Shown here: in pieces, positions 13,101-64,000 of the stretch
Position numbering within the stretch: the stretch's first letter is position 1
Layout: each line of letters opens with the position of its first letter
Assembly (NCBI GenBank): GCA_036172245.1
Contig: JAYWIR010000038.1
Coordinates: 1,488,001 to 1,552,000, forward strand
DNA from: Raillietiella orientalis
Taxonomy: Eukaryota
Direction of reading: 5' to 3'
Length of the DNA stretch: 64,000 nucleotides
Position numbers and translations under genes: made by a program
Notes under the pieces: model-generated
What the model was told of the DNA's origin: nothing
Databases searched by the model: none
What the model saw: only the letters and a program-made list of their open reading frames with translations

Positions 13101-16100
13101 TTCGAGAGATTCTCAGGTGTTCGTTCGCTACGGATTCTGAATCTTCCGATGTTCGGATGCATTCCAGCAGTATTGTTTGTTCGAGAACACACACTTCTTC
13201 TTGTTGTGCTATGCTTGCTTCTCGAGAATTCTCAATTCAAGGAGGAAGACAGGAGAGAGAGTCTGTCCTCAATACATGGTCTATTTCTTCTGTATTGCAT
13301 ATTTCAACGTACTCGATGAGTATCCTCAAGAGTAGCCGACGTCCCGCATTGATTACCTTGAGAGAAAGAGACCTGGCTTCGAGTTGGAATCTTTTCCAGG
13401 AACAGTGTGGTTCGTGGCTGTCAAACTCCAGTGTTTCAAAGTAACCTTTTCCATCTGGATCACCATCTGGTCATTTCTTCCCTTCATTGCTATCCGGCTA
13501 TTCACGCGACTGTTGAGAATGTGGCTTAGCGACTCTTCCCATCTTTCGTTCCTTCTTCGGAGGCTATGAGTACCGTACCTGATGGGCTGCGTTCCCTCAT
13601 ACTGAAGGATGGGTTGTAATCTGTAATTTGAAACTGGAGATGTGTTTACCATCTGACAGAAAACGCACGCTCCATCGCGTCGTGGCGATCAAGGCCACGA
13701 CTGAAAACGTGGTCAAACGCGACCACCGAAGGCGTGATCGACTCGACGATCAATGCCACCGAAGGTCGCGACATTGCTGCCCTCTCTAAAAAAAAGGAAA
13801 AGAAAAGGTGAGGGTAGCGTGCAAGAACTGCTTCAATTGTTTTCTTTTATTCTTACTGGATGCCTCATTTCAATTTTGGATTCTCGTCCCTTTTTCCTGC
13901 GTTCTTCCTTGGGGCCGGATGCCTCCTAACGCAGGACATGGCCTTTCCTTCATCCGAGCGTTTCGTGACGAGGAATGCCTCGCACTGAAGTGCGCACAGA
14001 ACTCGGGGTGATTCCCATTCTCAAGTGCACCTCGCGTGTTGACTGTCTGAATGTAATATCTCGGGTGTTTTCTCTTTCAAACGTTTGTCTTATCCTGACT
14101 GGTTATGATTCTTGTTTTTCCCAACCTTCTGATGATTCGATGTTGGCCCTCGGTTTGTTTCATCTTCTGTCGATCGCTCCGGACATGAAATCCTTCACAT
14201 CCTCATCGGTTGGTGGTGCTTCTTCGTCTCTAACCTCAACGTCCTCCGAATGAATCCACCCCTGCCCTGCTCGGAGAGATCAGGAGCTTGAAGCAACGGT
14301 CATACGAGGAGTTCTCGACCTCGTCGAGCGGTGTCGGCACACCGAGACATCCGCTGATCCATCTACATGCGTGTGGTTGCATGCGCAGCTGCTCCCATTG
14401 TCTCGTCTCCATGGAGTGATTCCATTACGAGGATAACCCATGCTATCTCCTTCCGATTTGTTCTACCTGTTTCTTGGGAATTCTTCTAATTCCCTTAACA
14501 CCACACCACTTCGCAAATCTCAAGACGCCAGAGATGGCTCTGCGATTGCTCTCGAGGTCGCAGCATTCCAAATTGAAGGCAAAGAGGGGAGCTGATCCTC
14601 CACACTGGTCCTTTTCTTCTAGAGCCACTTCTGAATGCACGTGAGGACAACTGGCTTCCGGTATGATTCCCTTCGCCTCTCAGCACCGGATCCTTTCATC
14701 TCCATCCACGTCCTTCTCGTGATCCTCGTGCATTCGAAGCGCACACTTCAGTTTTCTTTTGCCCTGAGTGTTGCAGCCTTCCACTTTGATCCTTGGCAGA
14801 CAGAGTAAAGAACTGATCCCAAACATTCGCTCTCCCAATTCAGTGAATCGTTCTCAGAAATTTTTTTATTGTCTTTCCTCTTCCGACGGCGCCAAAATTC
14901 GATTATTCAAAATTTCGCCCTGGGAAGGATACCGGAGGCGTGATGCAGACGGAGGCTGTCACCACGTTACAGACATTTCTGAGCTCAGTGGCGCCAAGGA
15001 AACCCTCGGAGGAGTTGTGCCTTAGTACACGCTTCGGCTGTACATATACTAAAATGGGGAGGATACAGATAAGATTAGTATGGCCGCTGCACAAGAATGA
15101 CACGCGAAATCGCGAAGCGTTCCACATCTTCACGCCCGCATTGGCCGCCGTGTGGCTGTAGTCTCCTCCGCACGTGGCACAAAGCCTTGTGGGTTTGAAT
15201 CCCGCTCAGGAAAGCCATCGAAGACGAGAAATGGGTGCGTCGTGGGTTTTGATTCCACTTTCCTTCCCCCATCAAGTTATCCTCGGTTGGCTTCGGGGGC
15301 GGCACTGGTGGGAATCGAAAGCCTCGTTGACTGGCCAGTTGACCTTCCAGGGTCCTTTCAGGAACCAAGGAATCGGTTCCCTTCAGGGCTTCCCTCCGGT
15401 TGCAAAAAGGGAGACGTACCATGGAGCTTCTCGATATTCCCCTTGTGGTGTCGCCTCTCCAGAGCCCAAAGAAGCGCGCTGCTCCCTTCGGGGAGTTCCC
15501 TTCAGCGAAATTGGAAAGGGGTTCTCTACAGAGGAAGAGGAAACGAGGAGCGGCTCCCTTGCAGGTTCCCTCTGGAAGAGAAATTCCAGGAGCGGATCCT
15601 TTCCGGGTTCCCTTCGGAGGAGAAAAGAGGAGTGGCCCCCTCCGCAGGAAAGGTTAAGGTCAAGGAAGAGGAGGTTTCCTTAGGGGTTCAATTTGGGGAC
15701 AACAAGGAAGAGGATTCCCTCCGAGGTCCCTACGAAGCGTCAGGGGAACGGACTCGTTCATCCAGAGCCTTCCTGGATTCATAGGGTGGTCCCTCCAGGG
15801 TCGCCCCCTAACTTGAACAGCTGCACGCACCCTCGGGTAGAGCGGGCGGTGTTTAAGGAGTTATGCCTCCACTGATTGATCTTTGAGGTCTGTCATAAGG
15901 AGGGCTTGTTTTGATTGGGCACATGCCGGAAATTCTTGCACCTAGGGAAATGAGAGCTGTGTCCCTTAAAGGGATCATTTCAATAGTCAAACTTGACCGA
16001 ATTCACGAATAAGTCGATTTCAACTCCCGTGGGTTAATGATAATGATTGACGCGTCCGACGTGGGTACTCGAGAGAAGAGCAGTCTCATCCTTGTTTTCT

Positions 16101-23600: not shown

Positions 23601-26477
23601 GCCTCAAAAAAAAAAGGAATGCGAAGATGGCCATTCAGTAGGGAAGCATAAGGGCGAATTTTCACGCCAAAGGCACTCGGATATGTGTCCATCACAGAGC
23701 TTTCCTAGTCAAACCTTGCAGCTCTAAATTCATGTCACCATGACCGCAGTATCAAGGTCGTCCTTCACGGCACATCTCATCGCAACTTCGGTGATGCCTT
23801 GCTAGATGGCTCCTAAGCCTAAAAGTGCTGGATTTTAATATTTTCAGGTAGATTTTCCAATAAAAATCACATCAGTCCCAAAATCTCATGGACACGTTCA
23901 GCTGAGAATTTTGAGACCGATTTCCCCGTGAGAGAGGAAAATGTATCGGTTTTCAGTTCATCATAGCCAACTCTTTTCATTGATGATCTTGTCGAATGCA
24001 CAGTGAATAAACGAACTACCTTATAGATAAGGGTTTTCCTTTCGAGCGCAAGAAATGATTGTAGACGAATGAAAACTCTCATCTCCCATTCTCATAAGGA
24101 CATCATTCACCTGCTTTTATTCTTATATTGCTTATCGCTTGGGATGTTACCGAAGTACTTGCGAGAGACCTTCCATTTCTGACACTCCAAGAACCTCTCC
24201 TTGTCGCTTTTCCTTTGGTCTGAAATGCCTGGTGATGAAAGTTCCTAGATGAAAGTTCTCCATTGTTCACGAGATGAAAGGTCACCAATCATCAGGAAGG
24301 GTATTTCCGCCTCCTCGACCGGGACCCCCCCCCTTTAAGAGGTCGCAGCAAGAATTGCAGGTGAATTTTCCAAGAGGACACGAAACCTTCCACTGAACCT
24401 CGAAGAGTTTTTCCATAGTTTATTGTGTTGCATACTTTCCTCCTGTTGTCCCAGAGTTTTTCCATTTCGTGGTCGAGATTTGAGATCAAAAATACATTCC
24501 GATGATGCTGCGATACCTCGGACAGGATCCCCCGTGATCTTTTAACGAGAGCCTGATCCGCATACATCCAAATCAGTACATTCGTGTAGCATCTGACCTT
24601 ATTCAGAATATTCTCCCTAATGCTTCTTCTTCCTCGACTTTGCCAATTCGGATTGGGTCAGGATGCATGGTTTGCTGTTCTTAAAGTTTCAGGTCTGTCG
24701 GTTCTCAAGGACTGATTCCTTTTCCTCAATTCCGAGAGCATAAAATCATCAAAAAGACATGGTTCCCCCTGTGAGTCCACGTATTGTTCTTTTTGCATTC
24801 TCAGTTTCCTCAATTTTTCTCAGGGCTCGCAATTCCCAGTCATCATCTTCATGCTCTTTTCTATTTCTAAAGAGACCAAAGATCATGCGCTTCTTTGCTG
24901 ATTTGAGCTGATGCTTTTGAGACCAGCTGATATCTTGATCCTTTGGGACTGAGTGTTATTGGCAATTGGAAGCTCCATCTGTCGTTTTCATTATCACAGT
25001 GTTGCATAAGCAGCATTCGAATAAAAGAAAGTCTCAATGTAGTAGTCAATGTCCTCTGGGGAAATGTCGAATTTTTCTAGCCGCGAGATGGACTTCCGAA
25101 GCATGACAAGCAGAAGACAGCGAGAGGTCAGTTTGCCTCCCTCTTGGAGGTAAAATTCTGCCCCGAAGTGCCCGCATTTCCCAGCCCTTTTCTCTGTTAC
25201 TTCAGTGTTCACCCTTCTCTCGGTGAGCAGCCTATAGCAGAAGAGATGGGACGATGCGGAGGAGAAGCTCTGTTTCCAGGTCACCCTTTCCGCGTCGAGA
25301 GGCAGTCTCATGACGATGCGCAGCCGCTCCTCAGCCACTGTACTGTTGGTAACCCACTGATCTGCAGAGTGTTGGCACTGAAGAACACATCGCACCCGGT
25401 CTTCCCTGAGGGCCATTTAACACTTCCTCCCAGCTTCGGTTCACGGACTGGCTTTCAGTTCACTCCCCACAGGAGAGCGAATGGAGCCGCTACTCTTCTC
25501 GCATGGAGATTGGTCGATCCGCCGGAATAAGCTCGAAGTGGAGCTTTGAATTTTCCGGTCCTGGGAGGTTCAGTTGAGCTCGAGACAGACCTTCTACATT
25601 CTATAGAAGAGTCTGTAACTGCGACCGATTACGCATTCCCACGTCGAAAAAAAGTGCGAGATGATGGACGAGTCGGTAATGAATTCCGCTGAGATGGGGC
25701 TTCTAGGAGCTGAAAAGGCATCTCTGCTTCCGCCTATTTCATAGGGAGCCCCACTCGCTTGCACACTTTCCGTCGGCTGCCAGCTCGACTTCTTCATCTC
25801 CGTGTCACAAGCGAGCAGGAAGCTCGGTTCCTGCTTCGAGCCTTCGAGCGAAGGCTCTTTAGTTCGCTCTTCGGATCATAGACTCCCACACTGTACCTGA
25901 TACTAGAGCGCTCTTCCGTCGGTGGCGAAGAAGAGAGACAGCTTCCTGCATTCGGTGCCACCCCTTTCTGCGCAGCTCCTGCTCCAATCCTGCTGGACCA
26001 CCCGGCCGACGCGAAACATCGACTTCCGTTTAAGAGCAGCAAGTCCGGAAGGAGTCTCGAATTGCCTCCCAGAATGGACGGCCTTTGAAGCTGCTATCTC
26101 TTGTTCTTTCCGCGCTCCCCTCCTTGATTTGATAGGTTGACCGAACGGTCGCTCCTCTTGGCGATGAACTCGGGATCCCCGGTGCAGCGACTTGGAAAGC
26201 GCGCTTTCCAGTCTATAGAGCAAGGGCATGCCACACGTCTCACCCACACGGGCAGCAGTGACTGGAACCACCAAGACGTTCGCGGAGGAGAGCTTCGAGC
26301 CTTCTGCGAAAGACGCAAAAGATTTCCGCCTCAGCAGCGGAGGAAGGGATCGATTTCCGATCTTTTCCACTTCATCCGTTGATCCCAGTAGGTGAGATTA
26401 TTCCCCGAGGCGCGGAGGTCCTCACAACGAAGCAGATGAGCCGTCCCGCAGGAAGGGGATGCCAAAAAAAGGGAATA

Positions 26478-26643
26478 GCCCGCACTGGAGGCCGTATGGC
26501 CACGGTCTCCGCGCGTGGTTCCAAGCTCTGCGGGTTCGAATCCTGCCCGGGGAGCAATAAAACCAGGAAATGGATGCTTCTTGGGTTTCGAGTGCCCGGG
26601 ATGACGCGGGTTGGCCTCGACTGGCTTCGAGTGCGATACTGGT
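26478..26643 (+). mobile_element. SINE-like element copy 3, 5' tRNA-like head (interrupted by a LINE)
   Basis: GCCCGCACTGGAGGCCGTATGGCCACGG...GGGTTCGAATCCTG; similarity to other copies stops at the LINE junction. Confidence 0.85.
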
Positions 26644-29548
26644 TGACACCCGGTCACACTGGGGCGCTTATTTATAAACCTACATGTCTGTGGCAGGACG
26701 TTCGATACTGCCACGTTACTTATGAATACGAAAAGGAACCTGCCGGGATCTGGCACGCAGGCTAGCAAAGTGAGTCTGGGCAGCACGAGGTAAGGGAAGA
26801 CAAACAAAAAGAGAAAAACAAACCAAAAAAACTTCAATCAAAAAAGATGAAAAAAGGGGAGGTTCAGGAAGGGATGACTGTGTGTTGGAGGGCGCCCGCT
26901 GCATCCTTGTAAGGATGCCGGCAAGTTCCTGTTTTATCGTTCCCAGATGGGGCCATCTTGACGCTGTCCTCATATAGAGGACAGAAAAATAGATGGCATC
27001 TTTGTCGTTCTGTCCTCCTTTGGCGTTGTTTTATGCGGCCCGCGTAGGCAGCACAGTGTGCTAGGGATGCGGCCGGCCACTGCAGATCTTTCTCCGGAAT
27101 ACACAGTAGCACGCCCCAGAACAAAAGTCCATGATATCGAGCATTCGGGGTCGCAGCGTCGGTGAGCTGGCCCGTCGTCCACTCGACCAGTCCTCTTCTC
27201 CTTCCAGAGATTTCCACAGTGACCTCCTATTTAACCTTAGGGCTGCTGACTATATGCTTCCTAAGAAAGGCAGCGCGGCGACGAGGGAGGTCCTGCTTGT
27301 CCATGCACTCTTCGCGTGATCTTCCAGGATCTCCCGGAGCGTTCATTTGTTGGTGCGCGCATTCAGGAAACGTCTCCCCTGTTCCGTGCTTGGCTCCTGG
27401 ATCCTCCCCCACGTTCGAACGAGCGCCTGCAACCATACATTACCGTTCACGGGCCAGCACGAGATTCATCCTTTTTTCCTCGCCAGCGTTGCCACCTGCC
27501 ACAGGTGCAATCCGCCGTGGATGAGACTGCATGGACAACGCGCCAGGAAGGACGCGAGCCCCGCGCTGCCATTGACTTGCTGGACGAGGAGACCTAGACA
27601 TTGGCACCAGGTGGTGCTCCATAATTTTTTCATAAGGGCAATAGTTCAAAACTAGAGCTGCAGCTCCATTCGCTCCAGCGTCAGGAGTCCTGGGCTAGGC
27701 CGCCGTCCCTGAGAGGAGAACACAAATCCTTTGGGAGGACTCGGAGCCTCCCTTTGCTCAGAGGACGATCCGGAGGAAATCCTTTGTCCTCTTCCAAATG
27801 CATGGCAGGAAAGGGAGCAAACAAAAAGCCAGGGGGGGCCACAAACGTGTTCTATACCGCGACCCCCTCCGGCAGGGAGAACCTGCCCTGTTGGAACGGG
27901 CAAAGAGCCTGCAGTGCTTTCTGAAGACGGCTGTACCAGGCTTCTGAGGGGAAAAAGTCCCCCAACGGAACACCCAGGTACTTTAAGTACCGTCCTTTGG
28001 GAATCCCCAGGCGAATCCAGTCCGGCCGCCCTGCCCACGACGCACCAACGGGAACCACGGACGACTTCGCCTTGTTCACCACCAGGCCCGTCCCACGAAT
28101 GAGAAACTCGAAAAAATCGTTGAGTGCGCATGCCGGCGTGGACATGGGGAGCAACAGCAGAAGATCGTCCGCGTATGCTGAGACGGCAGGCGTGCCGGGA
28201 CATACGCGCGGGTGGAGAGCTAGAGTCTCCCTGAGTGTCCTCAGCACCAATTCGAAATAGATGCTAAAGAGTAGGGCGCTCAGGCTGTCGCCCTGCTGTA
28301 AACCGCGTCACACCGGTACGCCATGCACCGTCTGCCCACTGAAAGAGATATTGATGAGCGCATGGCGCCAACTGGAGCGCAGATAGGCCGACAATGCGGT
28401 CGGGAAACCCAAGCGTCCCAACAGTTCCAGAAGGAGCTCCTGGTCTACGCAGTCGATGCCTTGTGCAGGTCGACTACGCCCGCAAGGGCTCCCACTCCCA
28501 CCCGATCTTCCCTCCCCTGGCCGACGGACGCTCCGGAATTCCCGTTGTCCATCCTGCCTCTTTCTTGTTGGAGCGCGAACCATGTGCTGGCGAAGAACAG
28601 GTTGGCGTCCATGCTCCGCCCGGGAACAGCATACGACTGCTCCGGGCTAATGAAGCTTTCTGCCACCCACCCCAGCGGCTCGGTCCACAGTTTCGGTTGC
28701 AACTTGGCGTTCGCGTTTACCACGGTAATCGACCGCCAGTTGCTTATGCTCCGTAGGTCTCTTCCTTTGGGAAGGAACCGTACCCTTGCTGAATGAAATG
28801 AGGCGGGAACGTCGCCTATTTCTCGTATCAGCAGGGTTGTATCAGGGTGGTCAGCTCCGCCGCAAAGCATTGGAAAAACTCCGCAGGCAGGCCGTCCTCT
28901 CCTGGAGTCTTGCGCCTCTTGAGCTTTCCGATGGCGGTGATGATCTCTCCCATCGTGAAAGGCTCGTCGAGGCTCCTCCTAAGCTCCTCTCCGATCGCTG
29001 ATGCACCTTCCGGAAGCAGGAATCTTTCAAAATCCTGGTCAGGAGGTGTTCTCGCATACAGGAAGGAGAAGAACTTACGTATGATTCCTTTTACCTGAGC
29101 GGGAGCCGAGTGATCCCGGCCCTCGTCGTCCAGCAAGCTGGCCGACCCGTATTTCCAGGTTTGGCTCTCAGCTCCCGCTTTGAATTCTGTCCGCTTCCGG
29201 ATATTGGGTGTTCTGCTGCAGCAGCGGGCGCATAGGTACGCCCGCTCGTTACGGACACCGCCTCCGAAGCCTGCAGATAGGCGGTGCAGGGGGAACTGCC
29301 TGCAGAACTCTCGGACCGAGAGTTTGAGCGGTCCCAGTCTGCGAGAGTCTGCAACCTGAAACCCTGTAGGAACTCGCGGAGGTGTTCCACTGCTCTTGGG
29401 AAGTTTACCCAGTCCCCTGGGAGATGCTGCAGATCCGAGGGTTGACCCCGGTCGTGCGTATGGATCTCGAGTGCGATGGGGGAATGGTCTGACAGCTCCG
29501 ACTCCATTTTGCCTTGTGAGCAGATGCACACGTGAGCAGAGGTGCTCG
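26644..29548 (-). mobile_element. 5'-truncated Tx1/L1-clade non-LTR retrotransposon with frameshifted ORF2
   Basis: End of APE endonuclease (SDHSPIALEI), KTPGEDGLPAEFF, FLPKGRDLRSISNWR, ISPEQSYAVPGRSMDANL, DLHKA, QQGDSLS, AYADDLLL, NKAKS, LKYLGVPL; flanked by a 17-bp duplication. Confidence 0.92.
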
Positions 29549-30140
29549 TCGAATGCGACACTGGTGGAAACCGGATGCCCCTGTTGGCTGCCCGAGATTG
29601 GAAACTGACCCTCCGTGGTCTCCCTTCCAGGAACCAAGAAGTCCATTGCCTTCAGGATTTCCCTCTGGTGGTGAAGATGGAGCCGCTTCCTCGTGGATGC
29701 TGGTTGCTACTCGCCACGGGGGACTGCCTCTCCAGAGTGCAAGACGTGCTCTGCTCCCTTCGGGGAGCGCTCTACAGAGAAAATTGGAAGCTTCCCTCCG
29801 GGGTTCTCTTCAAAGGAAGAAATGAAAAATGACCCGACTCCTGAGGATGGGGGGTCCGTTTGGAGAGAATAAGGAACAAGTCCTTTCGGAGAAAACCAGG
29901 GCTGGGTTCCCCTCCCAAGCGTGAGAGGAACGAACTCCTTCCTCCGTATCCTACCTGGATTCATAGGGCGGTTCCTCTGGGGTCACTTCCTAACTTGAAG
30001 AATCACATGCACCTTCTGGTGGCGTGGACAGCGTTGAAGAGCTTAGTGAGCCCCTTCTAAGGTGGCGAGTGGTTCTTCAGCGCTTGGCGAACCAAAGAAA
30101 AGAAAATCCGGGAAAAAAAGACAAAAAAAAGCTGGAAGGA
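29549..30140 (+). mobile_element. SINE-like element copy 3, 3' body
   Basis: Resumes where the head at 26643 stops (ACTGGTGGAAACCGGATGCCC); hairpin units; CAGCGCTTGGCGAACCAAA shared with copy 4; A-rich tract. Confidence 0.85.
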
Positions 30141-34892: not shown

Positions 34893-35787
34893 TTCTATAG
34901 AGAAACGAAATCCCAGAATCGTCATCTGAAAGAGGTTCCCGTGGAGGTGGATCATGGAAAGAGCCTCCTGCGTGTCCGCGCTCGCAGTCGGCACAACACT
35001 CTTTACGGAAACAGGTTCCCAGCCGCGACAGGATGGGGCGCTCTGGAGCGGCGGAAGAGTGGTCGTGCCTGGAGTCGCTCGCCTCTGCGCACCGTCCATC
35101 GGTTCCGGAGGAGGCTGGGCAGCGCGCATGGACCGTGCGCCGAGGACGGGCCATCTCGCTGGATTCCGTCGCGGAGTCCTCGAGTTCGTGGGATCGGGCG
35201 AAGGACCTAGGGATGGGAGAATTTGGGAACTTCGGGAGACGGATGGGGCAACGTTAGGAGGGAAATGGCACACTTGCAACATTCCCGGGGAAAACGAAGG
35301 AGGCACGAGGCACGCAACCAGCCCGGATGAAAGCATCCTCAATGCCCGCAGCCTCTTCAGGAGGAAGAGATGAAGGGAATCGACTGCGGAGAAGCTGAAG
35401 CCAGTCGTTGCCTTCTTCCCGTCATCGTAGCACACAAAAGAGTTGGGATGAGAGATAATCGCTAGCTGGAAAGATTACAAATTCCAAAAGAGGAATGTGC
35501 AGCTGTGTTACTTGCATCGTCCGAAACAGGAATTTTCTCTGGAATGCCAGTCCGACTTGATACTTGTAATCGTTCAGATCCCTAAGGAAAGCGGCAAGCA
35601 AGAATGGGGGAGAGGGTTGAGCCTCTTCTTCATAGACCCACTTGAGACGAATGCCGGGCGTCATCGTGTTCACGGCATCCCCCGGGTGGTTGTCCCATCC
35701 CCCATTCTTTCCCATGCTGGCAGAAGCCGTATCCTCCACGACCACGTGGATCGCTTTTCGGTTTTCTCAATGAACGAGCTTGGAGCT

Positions 35788-37846
35788 GAGCTCGGAGTTG
35801 ACGCGGTGTCTGTGTCCTCGGGAGAGAGTCGAGGAGTTTCCGCGGATCGAGTCAGTCACCATCCGTCCTCTCGCCTGCAAACCTCCGCCAAGCAAGAGGA
35901 AACAAGGACCTGGAAGTGGAACCACGGTTTCCAGGAACGGATCGCTAGGCCAAATTCTCTTTCAACACTCCATGGAAACCTCCAGGGTGACAGACAACTC
36001 CATTTCTACGGTGCCACTTCTCTGTGACTCAGCAATCCAATCTTCCCTCAGAGAAGAAGAGAGAGCACGAAACTGGAGGATCCAAGCGACGATTGCGAAC
36101 TGGGTGTTGCGGCGGAAGGGGCAGCAGCATGCCAACTTGCAAGAAAAGATACGAGGAGGATTTCATCGGGAACATTCATGGGGTTTCACAGGAATTCGTG
36201 AGAAGGGATCGTTTCCGGCACGTGGCATTCTGGAGACAATTCCGCGAGCATCGCAGACAGAGATGCGAGTTCTTTAACGTAGCCGCATTCTCAGGGGAAA
36301 GAAAAGGCGGCTGGTGCGCTTTGCTCAAGACGCACGAGGCGCTTCGGGAAGGCTTTCGGGTGACCCAAAAATTCAGGTGCGAACGTGGATCGTGAGATGA
36401 CGGTGCCAATTCGAAGACCCTCGAGATGACTGCTCCAGAGAATTGCAATGCTGGCGCAACCGAGGGGAGCTGGCGCGGAACCTCCGCGCCAGCTTCCCTC
36501 GATTGGGAGACTAACTCCGTGGCGAGCGAGAGCTGCAGAGCTTCGGAATTTCGTGTAGAGGAAGAGACCCGGATTTGGCGAAGCCGCCAGGCGCTCTAGT
36601 GATTCATCTGTGGAAGGGAGTTCCTCCGGCTGCAAAGAGGCAGTTTGGCCACGGAAGCAACTCACTCCGAGCGACCATCGACCGGCATGCCTCAAGCATC
36701 CCCGTAAAAGAGTTCTCTGCAGGTTTCTTTTTATTTCGGTGCCTCTTCACTATCCTTGCGGTTCTCTCCCTGCTTCCCTCATGATGCATTCTCTCTCCGG
36801 AGGACAAGCAAAGAAAATTTTCGATCATTCTAGATGCCTGCCACGGTGTAAGTCAGAGTTTCGTTCCTAGAGACACGCAGCAACGACCCCAGGGCTGTCC
36901 ATCCCGGCTTGCAAGCTTAGCTGTGAACTTCGTGGCTTCCCTGCAGTAGCCCTTTCTCCAGGTATTCTCCTTGTCACGGAAACAATTTTTTCTAGCGGGC
37001 AAAACTAGGACGATTCGAAATCCCAAGGGAGGAATCCTGGAACCAGGAAAGGAACCTCCTGTCCCCTGTCTCCGTCCGCATCTGCACAGCTTCGTCTTGA
37101 GATCGAAGAGCAAGTGAAGAAGCTCGTGCACTTGGATACAGATCGTAAAAGACACACTTGCGTGTCACTATTCACTTACAGAGCATTGCAATTCTCTGGA
37201 GCAGTCATCTCGAGGGTCTTCGGATTGGCACCGTCATCTCACGATCCACGTTCGCACCTGAATTTTTGGGTCACCCGAAAGCCTTCCCGAAGCGCCTCGT
37301 GCGTCTTGAGCAGAGCGCACCAGCCGCCTTTTCTTTCCCCTGAGAATGCGGCTACGTTAAAGAACTCGCATCTCTGTCTGCGATGCTCGCGGAATTGTCT
37401 CCAGAATGCCACGTGCCGGAAACGATCCCTTCTCACGAATTCCTGTGAAACCCCATGAATGTTCCCGATGAAATCCTCCTCGTATCTTTTCTTGCAAGTT
37501 GGCATGCTGCTGCCCCTTCCGCCGCAACACCCAGTTCGCAATCGTCGCTTGGATCCTCCAGTTTCGTGCTCTCTCTTCTTCTCTGAGGGAAGATTGGATT
37601 GCTGAGTCACAGAGAAGTGGCACCGTAGAAATGGAGTTGTCTGTCACCCTGGAGGTTTCCATGGAGTGTTGAAAGAGAATTTGGCCTAGCGATCCGTTCC
37701 TGGAAACCGTGGTTCCACTTCCAGGTCCTTGTTTCCTCTTGCTTGGCGGAGGTTTGCAGGCGAGAGGACGGATGGTGACTGACTCGATCCGCGGAAACTC
37801 CTCGACTCTCTCCCGAGGACACAGACACCGCGTCAACTCCGAGCTC
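35788..37846. repeat. Inverted repeat: 665-bp arms 35788-36452 and 37182-37846, ~730-bp spacer
   Basis: The arms are reverse complements; two substitutions seen by eye; the ORF track shows identical translations on opposite strands. Confidence 0.97.
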
Positions 37847-38150
37847 GGCTGCAAGATCCATAGAAGCAGCCAACTCCCAGCTCCCACTCTACCCATTACA
37901 ATGGCATCATCTAAGATGGCAAGGGATGACCTCGTCGTCAGTATGCAGCGGTTCCATGAATTGTTTATTTCCGTAGGTCTCGAATTTAGGTGAGATGGTT
38001 GGAAAGCAAACACTGGTAATGACGGCCAGAGGGATGCGGTCAAAGGAAACTGCGGTCGAAATGATGCCGGACTGACGATCGCATCTTATAGAGTGGATTC
38101 TTGCAAATTTCAGATGGTGCTCTTGCAGCTTGCAAAGCTCACAAACTGGT
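37182..38150 (-). mobile_element. Possible Gypsy-like pol remnant overlapping the right arm
   Basis: FDRIPLAV..., LAILDDAIVMG (YLDD-like), then LQEKIRGGFHREH (integrase HHCC-like). Confidence 0.4.
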
Positions 38151-38949: not shown

Positions 38950-39550
38950 CTGTATGACACGGATACCAGGTGCATGTCAGCATTGTGAGCCATGCTCCTG
39001 GCATCCGCTACTTGGAGATCATCCACAGAGGAAAAGATGCACAGTTTGAAGCAGGTCATTGTGGCTGCAAAATGACAGTTCCCAGCGTAGCAATCATTTT
39101 TGCAAGCGGTGTTCTACAGCGTATAACACTGTCCACGTGGGACACCATGTGGGACCTATGTGAGAGGACCAGACATAACATGCCAGTCAGTGCTGGTCCG
39201 CATGACAAACAAAACAACTGTTTCGTTGCTTTGACTACAGAGGAAATCGGTACATGGGTACGGTATGCGGCTCTCCGGTGACCAGGACTTTTGCCCTGGA
39301 GTTTCCTGTCCGTCGCTACCCTTAAACCCAACAGTATTTCAGTAAAAAGAGCTGGTCGAGAACCCAGAGAGGCACTTTGGGATGGTGCAACGCAGAAGTT
39401 CTTCCTGGACGTTGGAGCCTCATTCAGCTACCACTCGAATACGCAGCAATAGCATGCCTCGAGCGCCGAAACCAGCACTCGCAAGACAAATCTCGCACTT
39501 CGCGATGCCCGGGTTCTGGAACCAATAATCCTCTCGATAGGGCCTGTGGG
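38950..39550 (+). mobile_element. Decayed retroviral-type integrase fragment (Gypsy/Ginger-like)
   Basis: EIIH...GHCGCKMT...LCER, then FGMVQRRSSSW...LERRNQ resembling the end of the integrase core; frameshifted. Confidence 0.35.
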
Positions 39551-55189: not shown

Positions 55190-55670
55190 GGGAAAGATCT
55201 CAATAAGATCGAAAAATAAGTACATGTGTTTATTACATGCATTAGTACATATGTTTGTATGTGAATTGATATGTAGAATATTATACATTAGGAAGATTAT
55301 AAAAAATAAATATACATGCCTATTATGAATGTTGATATACATATTTATATATAGATAAATGTATCAATTTATTTTAACATACATATTTATTAATGATCAA
55401 TACTACATTATATCAATATATACATTAAAACTGCAAAAAATTAATTTACATCTTTGTTGAAACGATATTGCTTTTATTAATATGTATGTAAATAAGCATT
55501 AACAAATTTGCATGTCAATCTATATATGTATATCAACATACATAGTAGGCATGTATATTTATTTTTTTATAATATTTCTAATGTATAATATTCTGCATAT
55601 CAATTTACATAAAAATATTCGTACCAACGTATATAATAAACGCGTGTATTATTTTTTGTGACCTTTCGGG
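55190..55670. repeat. AT-rich foldback / MITE-like inverted repeat
   Basis: Arms of about 145 bp (55212-55356 and 55518-55657) are imperfect reverse complements, e.g. AAATAAATATACATGCCTA vs TAGGCATGTATATTTATTT. Confidence 0.85.
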
Positions 55671-55789: not shown

Positions 55790-56660
55790 CCAGCGAGAGT
55801 CAGCAAGGCTTTCTCTAATGAAGGAGCATCCGGATCAGGGGAAAGCCATGCGGAGCGTTGGACTCCATCAAACCTCCAGCTATTTTCTCACCCATGGTGA
55901 CCACTTGCGTTTATGAAGACTACCGCTTCATCCACGCAACCAGGCTGAACCTGCTGCCCATTCAGGTGTGCAAAGGAGGGCTCAAGAAGGTAGGCGTTGT
56001 CGAAGATGTGCTGCATGGGATGGAACGCTGCCTCGCATTTTAAATCACCGCATGAGGCATTCATCCCATTATCAAGGCCGGCACAACGCTACTGGGGAGA
56101 GAGTAAAGCAAGCCATCACCTCGACAACCGGATGGAGGGTTATATCTGCTAACCAACGAGTCCCAGGAGTAAATTCCCCACTTAGACCAGACCTAGTGTT
56201 CCAGCAAGAAAACAGAATGGCGGTGTTGGATGCTGCATGCCCATTGGACAATGGAGAAGATGCACTCAACACCGCCAGAAAAGAGAAGGAACAGAAATAT
56301 CGACAATCCTTAACACAAAAAGGAATGAGAGCGAACGTCTCTTATTATTGGAGCACTTGATTCATGGGATCTCCAAAATGATGGAGTAATAAGGCAGTTT
56401 GCCGTCCCCCGAAGATATGCAGATAAGATGAGGAAGTTAATGATATACTCTGTCATTCGATGTAGCCGGGATGCCTACTGCACGCACCGGTTGGGTCATT
56501 ACCCCAACGACGCAATCCATGGGAACATCTGGAAATCGAAGCAGAGCAGATGACCATAGTTTCATTCACATCCAGATCATTGATGATTTTACAAGGAAAA
56601 ATGGGCAGATTGTGTAGAGCCACATTGGCTAATTTCTAAAACAATTTGTAATCTTCTTGT
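55790..56660 (+). mobile_element. 3' fragment of an RLE-type non-LTR retrotransposon (Utopia/NeSL-like)
   Basis: PDQGKA...YRFIHATRLNLLP, RCRRC...TLPRILNH, RHNA, LRPDLV...D..CPLDNG...ARKEKEQKY, GALDSWD, RKLM...IRCSRDAY: CCHC plus PD-(D/E)xK endonuclease; frameshifted. Confidence 0.88.
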
Positions 56661-56734
56661 AATCCTCAGAGAGAGATCGAATAGCCATCGGTCCGGATTG
56701 GCGGGAATCGTGTTGGCTTCTGGTGTCGCTGCTC

Positions 56735-57518
56735 CTTTCCAGCTTTGCTTTTGGTTCGCCAAGCGCTGAAGGACCGTTCGCCTCCTTATGGAGAAGCTCT
56801 CAAAGCTCTTGAAGAACCGTCTTCGCCACCAGAGGGTGCGTGTTGCAAACTCTTCGAGTCACAGGGGGTACCTCGGGAGGGACCACCTCATGCACCCAGG
56901 AAGGCTCCGGTGGAAGGAGTCCGTTCCTCGCGCGCTTGACAGGGAACCCTCTCCCTCTCTGTGTCCGAAGGAAACCGCTTCCTTGTTCTCTCCGGAGAGA
57001 TCCCCTGAGTGGGGTACTTCTCGTTTCTTCTCCGGAAGTAGCCCGCAAGGGGATTGCTTCTTGCTTTTCCCTCTGAAGAGAATCACGGAGGGACTCGTCC
57101 ACAAATTTCTCTGAAGGGTCGCTCCTGAAGGGAGCAGCGCACTTGATGCTCTGGAGAGGCATCATCAATGCGTCAGCTCCTTGGCACGAGTTGGATGGCT
57201 CCTCCCCTTTCCCCGGAAGGGGAAAGGACGGTTCCCTTCGCGACTGGAAAGGGAATCCTAAAGGGAACCGGCTCCTCGATTCCTGAAGGGAGCACTTCCC
57301 ATCCCGGTCAGTCAACGGGAACATCCATTTCCGGTTTGAGCTGCACCGCCGGTGCCGCACTCGAATAGGCCAACCAGCGTCATTTTGCGGAGGGAGACTC
57401 GAAACCCACGAGACACCTGCCATTTCTCAACGTCGATCGTTCTCCGGGCGGGATTCGATCCCGTGACGTCTGGCTCCACGGGCTGCAGTCGTAGCCACAC
57501 GGCCGCCTCAACGCGAGC
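56735..57518 (-). mobile_element. tRNA-headed SINE-like element, copy 4
   Basis: Minus strand GCTCGCGTTGAGGCGGCCGTGTGGCTACG...GGGATCGAATCCCG; same body and 3' CAGCGCTTGGCGAACCAAA as copy 3. Confidence 0.85.
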
Positions 57519-58782
57519 CAGATGGTCTTGGACCAGAAGGCCATCGAGTTGTAGCAGTGGCAGGAGGAGCAAGTAGTGAGTTTGGGCCTGTCTTGAGTTG
57601 GATTTCATTGTCCACTCCGATACTCGTAGGAATGATCGAGTGGGCGGAACCCGAATGCAAGGGCAACCATTCGGCTTAGGGACTTTTCGGACAAACTCTC
57701 CGAACGCTACCAGGAAGGAAGATTCGATGCCCGCTGTTCTGCACCCTTCCCCCCCTTTTTTTCCAGAAGGAACCGTGGAGCGACAGTCTCCCTCCTCAGC
57801 CCATCGGATTCCATTCTCCTTCCCTTTCTTGCAGAGGGAAAGGAAAGAGCATTCGGAAGAAAGGAACTAGGGGAAGCGCAACCAGGAAGCCTCTGCTGAC
57901 CTACCGCGGCTCTCGGAAGCCGTGTAAAGCACTCAGGAGCCTCGAGCAATGTCACGAAGGTATTGGCATAAACAATGTTACCGCAGCAGGAGAGCGCTTC
58001 TTTAGAGGAGACGGGCCAGCCGAGACTCCTGAAACGGTGAAGCGTGACGTTCATGACGTGACGTTACGTCAAGGAAATCGGCGCTTTGCGGCGCGCTGCA
58101 GTAGCATGAGGCATGCCGAGGAAGCGGCTGCAGCTTTGACGGCTGCATTCTTTCGTGAAGAGCTGCCATGCATTGTCATTTTCTTCTTCCTGCTTTTCAC
58201 TACCCCTTCCCTGAGCTTCTTCCCCCCTTCCCTCTTTTTTGGCTTTGTTCTTTTGCTGTATTGGGAAGTTTTGTCGCAGCATCCAAACACTGCAGGTCTT
58301 CACCTGAGGATCCATCGGGACTGAATCCATCCCTAAACTCTGTCCAAGAAGGACTTCTCCCTAAGGAGGAAATGCCCTCTCAGCCGCGTAGGAGTGCGCG
58401 CGAGCATCTCTGGTGACATCCAGACTCCTGTGGAAAACTTCCAGAGATAGTAAGCGCGCGCTTGTTTCGGATGGAAGGAAGGAAGAGGGAGAAGAGGGCG
58501 GATTTCCATTTCCAGGTCCTTCAGGATGCAGGAATTCCTTCCCTTCCTCCCTGGCTAGTTTGGATAGTTCAGAAGGAGATCGCCCGCTCTGAGGGGGGAT
58601 CCGTCTTTGGCTTTGCCTCAAACACATACTCAGCCTCCAAGAGCTAGCGGAAGAAGAAAGGCGCAGCGGAGAGCTCGTTCCCCCAAGGCAGTGGGCTGCG
58701 CGGCATCCCATGCCACTCCTATTTTCCCTATATTCTCCCTCCATGATGAAGATCCCTCTTCTGCCACAGAATGGCAGAAGAG

Positions 58783-59128
58783 GGAAGATGGGGGCGGAGA
58801 GAGATCGGTGCGGAGTTCTCTCCCGAAACAAAGGAGACCTCCGCTGATGACAGTGTGCCCTGGAAAGCCAGACCTTGGGTTTCCGAAGGAAAGAGGTCGG
58901 GAGTCAATACGGAGGAGGTCCTCAACTTCGAAATTTGCTACTTCAAGAATCCTTGTGCAGTGGAGGGGTCTCCTCTCAGTGAGGTTCTGCAAAGGACCTA
59001 CGCGTCGCAGTGAGAAACAAAATGTCGTCTGGACGTCGGTGAGGAGAGAGGATGAATAGCGCCAAAGAAATTGGGAAGGGTGGGGAAGATGAAGAGCGAG
59101 GGAGGAAGGAAGATGAGGGTGGAGAGAG
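58783..59128 (+). repeat. ~325-bp unit, copy A, with terminal redundancy (retrozyme-like)
   Basis: GGAAGATG...GGAGAGAG at 58783 and again at 59108; aligns in permuted order with the reverse complement of 59916-60295. Confidence 0.75.
58838..58889 (+). ncRNA. Degenerate type I hammerhead ribozyme-like motif
   Basis: CCTCCG-CTGATGA-CAG(TGTGCC)CTG-GAAA-GCCAGACCTTGGGT-TTC-CGAAGG. Stem II is 3 bp; stem I is 5/6 here and copy B has the fully complementary CGGAGG; stem III is imperfect. Confidence 0.5.
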
Positions 59129-59915
59129 GAAGTGTTTTCCCCATATTCCTCCTTCGCAGCGGCAGAGTGGAGTCTTCGCGGCTGCTGCTAAGCTCACCCT
59201 TGTCTCAAATTCTTTGACTCTTTTTTCCTCAGAGGTCCGCCACGCACTCTTCTTAGCGAGCCTCGCACGCTCAGTAATTCTTCATTCTCTACTCTTCACC
59301 TTTAGACACCTTTAGTTGGAGCGTTCGCGCGTGCTCCAGGCTGCCTTTGCGAGACGCCGACTCCGGGTCATGCGGGGGCGTCCTATTCGTGGAGCACGCC
59401 GCCGGTGAAAGGCTTATCGGATCTAAAGAAATCTCCTCGGAGACCGTCCTTCGAGCAGCACTAGAGGATCCACGCCTCGACAGCTCCGGTTGCAACACAC
59501 TTTTTTTTTTTTCCCCTCCTCTTACTCTGGGGAGGTCCAGTCAAGGACTACGGCCGCGGAAAGATCAATCGCCGGATCTCCTTGGAGTGTTTCGAAGTCT
59601 AATCCCACGCCACGCAGTGAAGGCATCCGTCCAGGGGTCGGACACGCCCGGGCTGCAAACAGGTCCTGGGCGGATCCTTTCAGCGCTATCTTCGCAGCTC
59701 TCCCCGAACCTCACTCTGTGCCCTCGAAGGCAGATTCCATTATCTCCCGAGCTCGCTTCGCAGGAAGACCGCCAAAGACTTCTTCCCTTGCTGTTGTTGC
59801 TATTACCCCTCAGGCCTGGAACGTTCGACTGGGGACCGGAAACAGCTCTTCCATAGTTTCTTCTGAGGAAAAGGCAATTTCGCTGTCTTGGACAGAGACC
59901 GGACGCTTCCACTCT

Positions 59916-60295
59916 CGGAGGTCCGGCTTCTCATAGCACGCTGATCATCATAGGAGTGTTCTTTGTTTTGAGAGAGGAGAACTCCGCACCGATCTCTCTC
60001 TCCACTCCCATCTTCCTCCCTCCGCCCTTCTTTGTCTTCTCCACTCTTCTTGATCCCTTTGGCTCGATTCATGCATCCTCCTCACAGACGTCCAGGTGAC
60101 ATCTCGCTGCTCACTACAAGCTCAGGTCCTTTACAGACCCTCACTAAGGGGGAGGGGACCCTTCCACAGCACCGGGGATTCTTGAAGAAGATGGTGACCT
60201 CCCCCTTCTTGATTCTCGACCTCCTCCCTCCGGAAACCGAAGGATTATCTAGGCGAAGGTTCTGATTCTTTCATAGTATTGATCATCAGGATCAC
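59916..60295 (-). repeat. ~325-bp unit, copy B (inverted), with hammerhead-like cores at both ends
   Basis: Minus strand begins CCTGATGATCAATACTATGAAA and ends CCTATGATGATCAGCGTGCTATGAGAAGCCGGACCTCCG; interior aligns with copy A. Confidence 0.75.
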
Positions 60296-63200
60296 GAGTT
60301 TCCTTCCCTTCTCTCCATCACTTTGCCCTTTATTTTCCGTGAAACGGGCAGAATCCTTCTTCCTGCTCTTCCAAGATCTGCACGCCTGCTACTGCGACGC
60401 CCCTTTATCTGCTCGTTCCAGCCCTCGGAAGTAGAAATCACCAACTCGAGGAAGAGATTCTCGAGGCGAAACGCAAGCCAAGAAAGGGGATTTTTATCCC
60501 ATATGTTTCCTGCCTGGAAGATCTTGCAAGTCCCAGAGCAATCTGAGGAAATCCCATCTCTCCCCTGAAGGAAGAGTGCGACCACGGGAACCAGTGGTCG
60601 CACTCTTTCACAGGATTCAAACGTACTCAAAGAAGAACCGAGCTGAGGTCTCCATTCAAAAGTCGGCCGCCACGGATGGATCAGGGAAAAGAACGCTGGA
60701 AGCGGGAATGAGTTTCTGCAGGATCTGGTCCATGGAAGAGGAAGATCATCCAAAACCACTGTCTGTCCTCGAGGGTGTTTCAGCTCAGCTTCTACGTGCA
60801 CCTTTCAAAAGGGTCCCATAAGACTGCCCATAAGGATCATGCTCTCCAGGAAGCGACACCAAAGGTTTTCCCGACCGTCCTCCTCCCTCTCCATTCCCGC
60901 TGCAGGTCTCCACCTCCTGTCTCCTATCGAGAGCGTTCTTGCCACGCCTCCTTGATCACGAAAGATTCCACGAGCCGAGAAGGAAGAGCCGTGGATCTCC
61001 GCACCTCAAGATGAAACTAAAGTCTGACGGTAGCGGCTCATTTGAGGACTCGGAATCCTCCCTCAGGCAACTGACCGTGCACCTCTGCGAAGCCCAGGGT
61101 CCCAGCCTTTTTCAAAAACAACCAGTCAGGTTCGCCAGCGGGCATGTGACAGCGGCACTGGATGTTCCGCGTCTTTGAAAAAACATCCGCTTAGAAGAGC
61201 GCCGAAGTTTTTTCGAATGGCCGGATCTGTGAGCGGAAAGCGGAGCAGAGTAAGCAACTCCTAGACCTCCCAGCCCCTGAGGGCGCTGATGAAGAGCCTT
61301 AAGCGTGACCTCGGAAGCAGACCACCGACAGGGAGTCATCGTAGTCGAGTTGAGGGACAGTCCTTCCCGAGAGAAGGTGAGAATCTCTGGCTTCCAGGGA
61401 GCTTTCCAGAACGGTCAGAAGAGAAAGCGAAATCTTTCGACCAGTCACGCCGGCGCGTTATTTTTTTTTAAAAAAAGTAAACAAACAAGTTGAAGAGAGG
61501 TCTCCTCTTTTCCTAAAAAAAACACATTTCAAGGGAAGGGTTCACCGACACACAGGTCGGTTACTGGGACAGCCCGGAGCGCGAGGGAAGGGAAAATAAA
61601 CGAATAAATAAAGGGAGTATGGTGACAGGGTGTTCTTTGGCAGCAGCCGTTCTTTTCTTACTCAGAAGCGAGTGAAAGATTTTGGAGATCTCCGATTCGA
61701 CTTCTTCTTGGAGTTGAGGCCACCTCGCAGCCGTCCTCATGCAGGCGGTTGTCTTCGCTGCGCCCGAGACTCCAGCACAGGGTGAACCTTGACGATGCGC
61801 GGACGTAACGCACATCGATGCCTGCGGGTAGTCCGCTCTGCGCGCCGAAGAATCGCCGCAGCGTTCACAGCAAAGACGGACGAGCAGGAATTCACGGAGG
61901 CAGATGGCCGCAGCGTACCATAGGCGGCGTCCTCTCGGCGCAGCGGCGCTCAAGTCGGTCCTCGCCGTCGTTAGTGGAGGGCAACGCAGTCCCAAAAGCA
62001 GTTGCGGGATCGATTCCGTCGGTCCGACCCTGAAGCATCTTGAGGATGCAGTTCTCCCGGAGACGAGGTGCCAGAGCTGATCGTACTGCAGTCCCCAGTT
62101 CAGAAACAGCAGCAACTCAAGGACGAAACACAGAAGTTTCCGGACTCAAAAGGAGGGGACCCTGAGTTCTTCGGGGGGCACACGAAGGAGTTTTCTCGGC
62201 CGAAGCAGTCCCTTCGCTTAGGAACGAGGAGCGGCTGTGACCACCATCTCTCTCGTCTTCCAGCCGTCAAAGAGTTTCGTGACTCCTGCAATAACTCAAG
62301 GGAAACTCCCACCCTGCCGGTAAGCTACTGTCGTTGTTTGCCCTTAGGGCAGGAGGAAGAGCAAGTGCGGCCGAACGAGTAAGACGCTCATCCTCTGCGC
62401 TTACAGCGAGGAGACAGCGACCTTGCACCCAACAGTTAGCACAGGTTGCCTCGCAGTCATGCAATACATTCCATAAGATGGCATCGTAGGCGTTCCCATG
62501 AGAACGGAATTTCGCAACCTGAATCTCTTCGATGCAATCTTCGAAAAACAAGGATGAAGAAGACCTAGAAAGCGATGACGGGGATTAAAGATCACTTTAG
62601 AGATGAGGACAAGTACAAGGAAAGAAGAAATCAAGAGTCTGATTTGAGGCCCCGGTGGAAGGATCTTTTGTCACTGAGGGTCACTCATGAAAGTCTCTTC
62701 GGGACCTTTTTAGCGATCAGATGCTGCCACTGTGCTACTTCTAGGAAAGCAGCGCAGTGACAGTATTTGATTGCTGGGTCACGGTACTCCACGCATGCCT
62801 CCGGAAGAGGAGCACCTGAGAAAACCGTCGCGTGATTCTGGGAACAGATTTTTCTGGGTTCAAAAGCACTTCGTCTCCAAGTGGGTTAGACACTGAAAGG
62901 AACTAAAGTGGTGTCTTGCGGAGAAGGCATGGAGAGTTCTCGAAAATGCAGCAACCAAACGCCAGCAGCCCGGAACCATCTTGAGCATCTCTAGCGCTGG
63001 TTCTCCGTTCTCCACCCACTTGGAAGCACCAGCTTGCATTCTCAGTATCTTTGGAAGATTTCTGGAAGTGCTTTGGTTTGTTGTCTTTTTTTTTCTTTCA
63101 AACTGACTGATGGGTGATTATCGCCGGTGTTATATTCGACTACTGCTCGCCTTGTCTGTTGATGTCTAAAACAGATTCCTTCAAGAAGGAAGATTCTGGA

Positions 63201-64000
63201 AGAAATTTGGCAGATTCCCGTTCGATCTTTTCCTTTCAGCAGACAAGTAGAGAAATTCACTTCATCGGCGGGATACCTAGCTGATTATCCACAGGAAGCT
63301 CTGAGAAACCATCAAAGCGTGAGAAATGCGAAACCAGCCGACCATCGGCAAATGGAATAAGAGCGTCTTGCAGCATCCGTCCGTTCTCTTCGACGCTTTC
63401 TGCCTCGCGCACCGAAAACCGCTGCTGTCTCGTCCCAGGAAGCCGAAGAACTGCCCCGCGATGTGGCTCGGGATTTTGCCGCCTATGACCCTCCTATTCC
63501 TCCTCTATTCATCTGTCCCAAATCTGCTGGATTGTTTGCTTCCCCTTTCCAGCAGACACGATGCAACCAAGGCATCTCCGAGTTGCTCTTCCTCAAAAGC
63601 CACCATTCGAATGTCGGGAATCCACCTCTTTCTCTGGAACGTTTTCCCATTCCTGAAACTCACTTTCAATCTTCCATCTCTCGAATTGGTCCTCCTCTAT
63701 TTCTGTTTCTCCAAGTGACAGAGAAAAGTAACGAGAAAGCATCCACAGTGAGGGATGAGCACTCTTCTCTTTCTGCTTCCCCCTTAGTAGTGATGATGCA
63801 AGACACAACAACTGAATTCCCGTATTTATTTGATCATGGGGTCAACGGATGAGTGGGATGCATCCAAGATGATCTTAGAGTGGGATAATGAGCAGAAAGT
63901 CGATTCAAGGACAGGATGCCTAATGGAGGTTGTAGGCAGATGTCAACCGACAACCGGTTGGCTGTGGCATCCAGCGTTTCCATGGCATCGGGCGCATCGC

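Follow-up and report, generated by a model that had tools for sequence, protein, structure and literature searches.

Duplications that pass through a circular intermediate leave a recognisable signature: the order of sequence blocks is flipped between the copies, only two copies exist, and micro-scars mark the junctions (PMC7450558, for the cases set out there). MicroDNAs, as summarised in PMC9527254, measure 100-400 bp. Retrozymes, in the account given in PMC7229834, are multicopy tandem repeats with a GC content below 50% and highly self-paired circles, and for the non-LTR class a preprint takes as its criterion at least two consecutive tandem units with complete type I hammerheads (bioRxiv 10.64898/2026.07.22.740005, as worded there). 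In the metazoan hammerhead motifs presented in PMC4209133, helix II comprises 4 bp, helix III is short and palindromic, and a G10.1-C11.1 pair is highly conserved.

Here, we analyse a window of 64 kb (the whole stretch of DNA under study) in which two copies, A and B, of one unit of about 325 nt face each other. Similar to the human cSDPs of PMC7450558, as far as these are described there, the pair displays an A-B to B-A flip, a copy number of two and junction microhomology with small inserts, the scars at this locus being a 6-nt microhomology (5/6), a 10-nt filler and a fold-back insert. The unit size also lies within the microDNA range reported in PMC9527254. However, the locus differs from the described cSDPs, which are large, distant, single reintegrations: its unit measures just 325 bp, the copies lie 0.8 kb apart and each is longer than one lap.

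With metazoan non-LTR retrozymes, as characterised in PMC7229834 and bioRxiv 10.64898/2026.07.22.740005, the pair shares its non-coding nature, a length of 150-450 nt, copies longer than a monomer, a type I-like layout (in one copy) and a flanking repeat of more than 4 bp. It differs in that there is no array, only two copies are present, the GC content exceeds 50%, the unit is not highly self-paired, two intact hammerheads are lacking and stem II is not common to the copies. The pseudo-LTRs of Penelope-like elements (PLEs), in the descriptions of PMC4209133 and PMC8557442, resemble the pair in partial terminal redundancy and in inverted neighbouring copies, and the minimal hammerheads of these elements resemble the B cores, which have one base more than A after position 9. 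In contrast to these elements as described, the locus has no G10.1-C11.1 pair, long helix II, palindromic helix III or nearby RT/endonuclease remnant, and A and B face each other, whereas the inverted PLE copy, to judge from a figure legend, appears to adjoin the 5′ end.

Two inverted copies are circularly permuted

The pair and its internal redundancy comprise the following features.

58765-59128, plus strand: copy A, 364 nt, or 1.12 laps of the 325-nt unit
about 60305-59916, minus strand: copy B as a whole, slightly more than one lap
59922-60243, minus strand: one full lap of copy B, 322 nt, permuted relative to A
58765-58803, plus strand: first copy of the A terminal redundancy, a purine-rich box, 27/39 identical to 59090-59128 and 31/39 to B 60034-59996
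59090-59128, plus strand: second copy of the A terminal redundancy, overlapping a 2 x 24-nt purine micro-repeat (59084-59132)

A and B are inverted, 0.8 kb apart and 73-77% identical. A 58873-59128 aligns with B 60243-59996 (72.8% over 261 columns, E 3e-38) and A 58765-58875 with B 60034-59919 (76.9% over 117 columns, E 5e-17). Since these matching blocks are contiguous but in opposite order, the two copies are circular permutations of each other, their laps measuring 325 nt (A) and 322 nt (B). The alignments thus bear out the initial annotation, which had described two diverged, oppositely oriented copies with different start points; its proposal of a circular or multimeric template behind them is likewise supported, by the permuted order and by the presence of more than one lap in both copies.

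That annotation had also noted that A repeats its own start 325 nt later and that B starts and ends in the core region, and both repeats are found. The windows compared were picked post hoc, so the chance figures are optimistic: for A, 23 of 27 positions are identical, a score equalled or beaten by 9 of 1000 shuffles and 46 of 20,000 local genomic pairs, and for B, 36 of 54 columns are alike between the start (60305-60254) and the end (59963-59916), a score reached by 4 of 1000 shuffles and 115 of 20,000 local pairs. The terminal redundancy of B, though weak, is real.

Divergence is similar among the three copies of the purine box (27/39, 31/39 and 30/39 identical), which fits a single event. 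Over 314 aligned sites the comparison of A with B shows 44 transitions against 21 transversions (K2P 0.25), and both have a GC content of 53-54% with 62-63% purines. In a survey of 68 pieces of 10 kb, A/B is the sole permuted pair among 63 local matches, so such pairs cannot be called a common class.

A protein-coding origin of the pair can be set aside: the indels do not come in threes, codon periodicity is absent and no Pfam family matches below E 0.1. A protein search with the 163-aa frame yields no usable match, an outcome that weighs neither for nor against coding. Folded as circles and compared with 60 shuffles each, A and B give z-scores of -0.61 and +0.53, values in which decay could mask a former structure. 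RNAalifold on the longer shared block finds 1 compensatory pair among 45, a count that says little with two sequences only.

Junction scars, flanks and spacer

Around the two copies we distinguish the following features.

58722-58741, plus strand: left direct repeat beside A, a candidate target-site duplication, matching 59135-59155 in 18 of 21 columns
59135-59155, plus strand: right direct repeat beside A, forming an imperfect 21-nt pair with 58722-58741
58753-58785, no strand: perfect 14-bp fold-back at the left end of A, in which 58753-58766 pairs with 58772-58785 (14/14)
59916-59921, minus strand: 6-nt microhomology closing the B lap, 5/6 identical to 60243-60238 at the lap start
60244-60305, minus strand: extra piece ahead of the B lap, with a third core-like copy (60289), the 6-nt word again (60259-60254) and a 10-nt filler
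60303-60313, minus strand: weak 11-nt direct repeat abutting the ends of B, 9/11 identical to 59916-59906
59156-59905, no strand: spacer between A and B, unique in the genome search and without a Pfam family

The score of the repeat that flanks A is equalled by 83 of 20,000 local pairs and by 65 of 5000 pyrimidine-rich pairs. Between this repeat and the copy lies the fold-back, which is probably a later template-switch insert, its late age being suggested by the perfect complementarity. When 12 fold-back bases are set aside, the A-B homology may reach about 58743, beside the left repeat. The 6-nt word that closes the B lap is also present at the junction of A, where 58873-58878 corresponds to B 59916-59921. 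The extra piece ahead of the lap has no stem II, and the start of B bears 16 additional bases. The 11-nt repeat at the ends of B is not significant alone, as 10,476 of 20,000 local pairs score as high.

Short near-perfect fold-back hairpins occur elsewhere in the region as well (60572-60607, 56218-56277 and 62707-62781), and the fold-back hairpins of the region suggest frequent local template switching.

Genome searches find two copies of the unit

Our working count for the 210-Mb animal genome is two copies, A and B. BLAST-type searches of this genome with A, with B and with 57560-61450 return this locus alone, so that a comparison of the unit with the genome, proposed when the locus was first annotated as a repeat family, yields A and B only. 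This type of search skips very common words; it does recover a neighbouring repeat family at 68-83% identity (40 scored of 191 candidates). Four patterns searched genome-wide with up to 3 mismatches find A, B and six further matches, and the latter are chance hits in which similarity is confined to the pattern site or to purine tracts. An nhmmer search with the unit over sets of 218, 99 and 400 kb of genomic DNA (well below 1% of the genome) finds no copy, there is no 325-nt tandem array, and an exact 22-mer has 0 matches in metagenome and viral contigs.

A binomial estimate puts the power of detection at 0.95 for a full copy of the age of A and B and at 0.31 for one that is 25% diverged from their ancestor. 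At the 95% level this leaves room for about 1 additional copy as old as A and B and for about 8 that are much older; very diverged relatives may exist as well.

A hammerhead-like layout in copy A

The initial annotation drew attention to three core-like motifs, at 58844 (plus strand), 60289 (minus) and 59951 (minus, with C3>A), and to stem I strands, a 3-bp stem II and a UUC at 58881-58883 in A. All of these are present at the positions given. Two of the core regions are delimited as follows.

58838-58889, plus strand: type I hammerhead-like layout in A, the sole descriptor match in the window
59922-59957, minus strand: core-like motif at the end of B, with C3>A and GAAA not intact

The layout in A consists of a stem I with 5/6 pairs, CUGAUGA, a 3-bp stem II with a C-G pair, GAAA, a 2-bp stem III and UUC. 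UGAUGA is kept in all three cores and C3 in two of them; the CUGANGA and GAAA boxes occur together in A and in the 60289 core but not in the 59951 core, and U16.1-H17 is found in A. By direct reading, stem I reaches 6/6 pairs between the 5′ strand of A and the 3′ strand of B (60232-60227), compared with 4/6 within B as a circle, and placing G12 one base earlier gives A a 5-bp stem III. In a hand alignment, two of three equally parsimonious ancestors retain GAAA. Stem II, however, is private to A, where a C-G pair closes its 3 bp; in the B cores the corresponding helix has 0 bp when GAAA follows, or 3 bp when GAAG does. A G10.1-C11.1 pair is absent from all three cores in any register, and a 4-bp helix II, G10.1-C11.1 and a short palindromic helix III are found in none of the three.

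How often such a layout arises by chance was gauged with a lenient type I descriptor of our own, drawn up with A in view (a minimum of 5/6 pairs in stem I, 3 bp in stem II and 2 bp in stem III, with G-U pairs accepted). A passes and both B cores fail. There are 0 matches in 603,992 strand-bases of other loci, and 0 of 59 cores in a further 800,000 pass. Among shuffles of A, 9 of 40,000 do so, and an order-6 Markov model gives 42 matches in 120 Mb; the chance rate is 2.6e-4 per unit, 0.045 per window and about 147 per genome.

The hammerhead fold of A has an energy of -0.8 kcal/mol against an MFE of -16.1 and a probability of about 2e-12, on nearest-neighbour energies, which omit tertiary contacts. 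Rfam models give 12 matches in 56000-64000 at E up to 10, none of them a hammerhead, and the Rfam hammerhead check suggested at first annotation thus comes out negative; at gathering score there is no hammerhead in the 64-kb window and, genome-wide, none above cut-off among 73 scored of 40,651 candidates. Four RF00163 matches below the cut-off are not related to the unit. Divergence in the hammerhead region matches that in the remainder of the unit (41/52 versus 204/259 identical); for a cricket satellite, PMC2837043 describes a hammerhead region more conserved than the rest.

Genome-wide, the core pattern CUGANGA-N7..17-GAAAC has 3097 matches against 1555 for a reversed control, a two-fold excess that may be word bias. 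The 100 matches listed look heterogeneous by eye with no family evident, and 0 of 30 loci pass the descriptor. The layout in A is improbable by chance for a single unit, and a decayed ribozyme origin keeps a minor share of the probability; overall, as a ribozyme look-alike, it is weak.

Discussion

With no further copies and a weak ribozyme look-alike, a one-off duplication scar is likelier than a retrozyme family. The retrozyme or circular RNA family put forward in the initial annotation is not supported: only two copies and no array are found, the GC content amounts to 53-54%, shuffles fold as well as the circular unit does, stem II is private to A and Rfam has no hammerhead match. We favour, with a probability of roughly 0.5, an old, one-off local duplication in which synthesis ran slightly more than one lap along a small circular or tandem DNA template.

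The proposed course of events starts from a unique purine-rich 322-bp segment, most simply the B lap, which would have closed head-to-tail at the 6-nt microhomology to give a microDNA-sized circle or a tandem junction. Repair synthesis would then have copied 1.1-1.2 laps from another start point, in inverted orientation, into a nearby staggered break, yielding A together with the 21-nt flanking duplication. The same template switching may have left the 50-60-nt end fragment and the filler before B, and all pieces would have decayed neutrally afterwards (K2P 0.25). From the permutation, lap lengths and scars that are visible at the locus we infer the order of events, the roles of donor and acceptor and the DNA nature of the template. 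The pair would then be without function today, and A would owe its hammerhead layout to chance in the course of decay.

Several observations agree with such a duplication: the permutation, the extension of each copy beyond one lap, the finding of only two copies, the 6-nt microhomology at both ends of the B lap, the excess of transitions over transversions (44 versus 21) and a hammerhead region that is not extra conserved. Others sit less easily with it. A passes the type I descriptor and the 3′ strand of B completes stem I of A to 6/6, permuted pairs are uncommon (one in 68 pieces of 10 kb), the 21-nt flanking repeat equally fits insertion by a reverse transcriptase, and the extra piece before B demands an added step. 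The cases described in PMC7450558, moreover, are single-lap, distant and large, whereas here both copies exceed one lap and lie 0.8 kb apart.

Could the pair still stem from a decayed retrozyme-like element or from a Penelope pseudo-LTR? We consider this unlikely. A hammerhead RNA of about 325 nt would have self-cleaved, circularised and been reverse-transcribed for more than one lap by a host retroelement, leaving two survivors. Such an origin would account for the whole type I layout in A, with its chance of about 2.6e-4 per unit, but A was already in view when the descriptor was set, and chance alone should give about 147 matches per genome. UGAUGA in all three cores with C3 in two, the 6/6 stem I across the A 5′ and B 3′ strands, the 5-bp stem III in A with G12 shifted one base earlier, GAAA in two of three equally parsimonious ancestral readings (by hand alignment) and the core at both the start and the end of B point in the same direction; stem II in A alone, the lack of G10.1-C11.1 in every core, the failure of both B cores and a hammerhead fold probability for A of about 2e-12 point away from it. 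The unit size falls inside 150-450 bp and flanking repeats of more than 4 bp are reported for retrozymes, yet the two copies without an array stand against the thousands reported in the same source (PMC7229834, as described there). In the account of PMC4209133, minimal hammerheads accompany PLEs in pairs, one on each strand and separated by 100-700 bp, but no RT or GIY-YIG remnant is found in 57560-61461, there is no Rfam hammerhead in the window and none above cut-off among the 73 scored of 40,651 genome candidates, and neither the circular folds (z -0.6 and +0.5) nor the composition (62-63% purines, 53-54% GC) is in its favour.

As to coding remnants, six frames of 57560-61461 read through stops give one match, at E 0.11, to an unrelated domain. 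Genome-wide, PF01541 has 1 match among 2 candidates, a count to be read with the caveat that the Pfam model may miss PLE endonucleases. We take this single GIY-YIG match to resemble SLX1, and Penelope-like elements are not thereby shown to be absent. Retrozymes and such elements are found together according to bioRxiv 10.64898/2026.07.22.740005.

Slightly less probable again is that A and B are the sole genomic fossils of a rare hammerhead circular RNA, reverse-transcribed for more than one lap and inserted twice at one locus. This RNA would have been retrozyme-like or viroid-like, about 325 nt long and purine-rich, with an atypical stem II; no living hammerhead family is detected in the genome.

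Equally doubtful is a short tandem array of about 2.3 units, which an inversion of about 1.2 kb would later have broken up by turning B and the spacer. In unit phase, the end of A (58803) almost adjoins the start of B (near 58830), and purine-rich inverted similarity at the putative breakpoints (59121-59132 and 60316-60303) may mark the ends of such an inversion. However, the 21-nt direct repeats around A become a coincidence (83/20,000), a non-integer number of units is needed and no array is present today. The least probable alternative, that A is a LINE-made retrocopy of a ribozyme-free circular or read-through transcript from B, would draw on the 21-nt flanking repeat, on LINE remnants in the window (RVT_1, 27855-28307) and on circRNA-derived pseudogenes, which have reportedly been published, but there are no AG/GT back-splice signals at the lap ends of B on either strand and no poly(A) tail, and a landing 0.8 kb from the source would be unlikely by an RNA route.

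If the duplication reading holds, the locus would be a small, clean case in which a microDNA-sized circle or tandem junction was copied for more than one round into the adjacent sequence and became fixed in the germ line of an invertebrate. Events of this kind are known, and nothing at the locus points to a function. Should the minority reading be true, the locus would instead preserve the remains of a circular, self-cleaving RNA that failed to expand into a family. It also provides a calibration: with criteria this lenient, a hammerhead-like layout is to be expected in about 4.5% of this genome's 64-kb windows.

Neighbouring sequence

Several other duplicated or repetitive features lie in the window. 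A recent inverted duplication of 677 bp (35776-36452 and 37182-37858) has arms that are 99.3% identical and 729 bp apart, and another genomic locus (L016, 4794-4952 and 6428-6596) holds a local inverted duplication of 169 columns at 92% that is not permuted. At 55212-55656 there is a degenerate, MITE-like palindrome of about 445 bp, 77% identical to its own reverse complement, with relatives at two other genomic loci. The dispersed family at 61515-61800 has a unit of about 260 nt and at least 40 matches on many contigs at 68-83% identity.

An old repeat family of about 765 nt, with 65-80% identity between copies, is present at 56730-57519, 7619-8441, 15134-15866, 26477-26648 and 29547-30118 and at many loci flanking the window. 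It has about 25 copies or fragments in 282 kb, and the tRNA-like head of the nearest copy lies on the minus strand at 57519. The family is unrelated to A and B: weak profile matches had hinted at kinship, but the family profile misses both at E up to 10. At 15025-15131 (plus strand), a full-length, diverged U6 copy (81.7 bits) ends within 3 bases of the tRNA-like head of this abundant repeat (15134-15866), and the two together look like a U6/SINE template-switch chimera.

Pfam matches in the window are RVT_1 at 27855-28307 (minus strand, E 3e-8), an F-box associated region at 38958-39278 (plus strand, E 1e-5) and 7tm_1 at 9388-10023 (plus strand, E 3e-5). The 7tm_1 match and the U6 copy mark the assembly as that of an animal. 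A frame of 147 aa at 55917-56360 (plus strand) has no Pfam match; it resembles the end of R2/NeSL-type non-LTR elements that carries the zinc knuckle and the restriction-like endonuclease.
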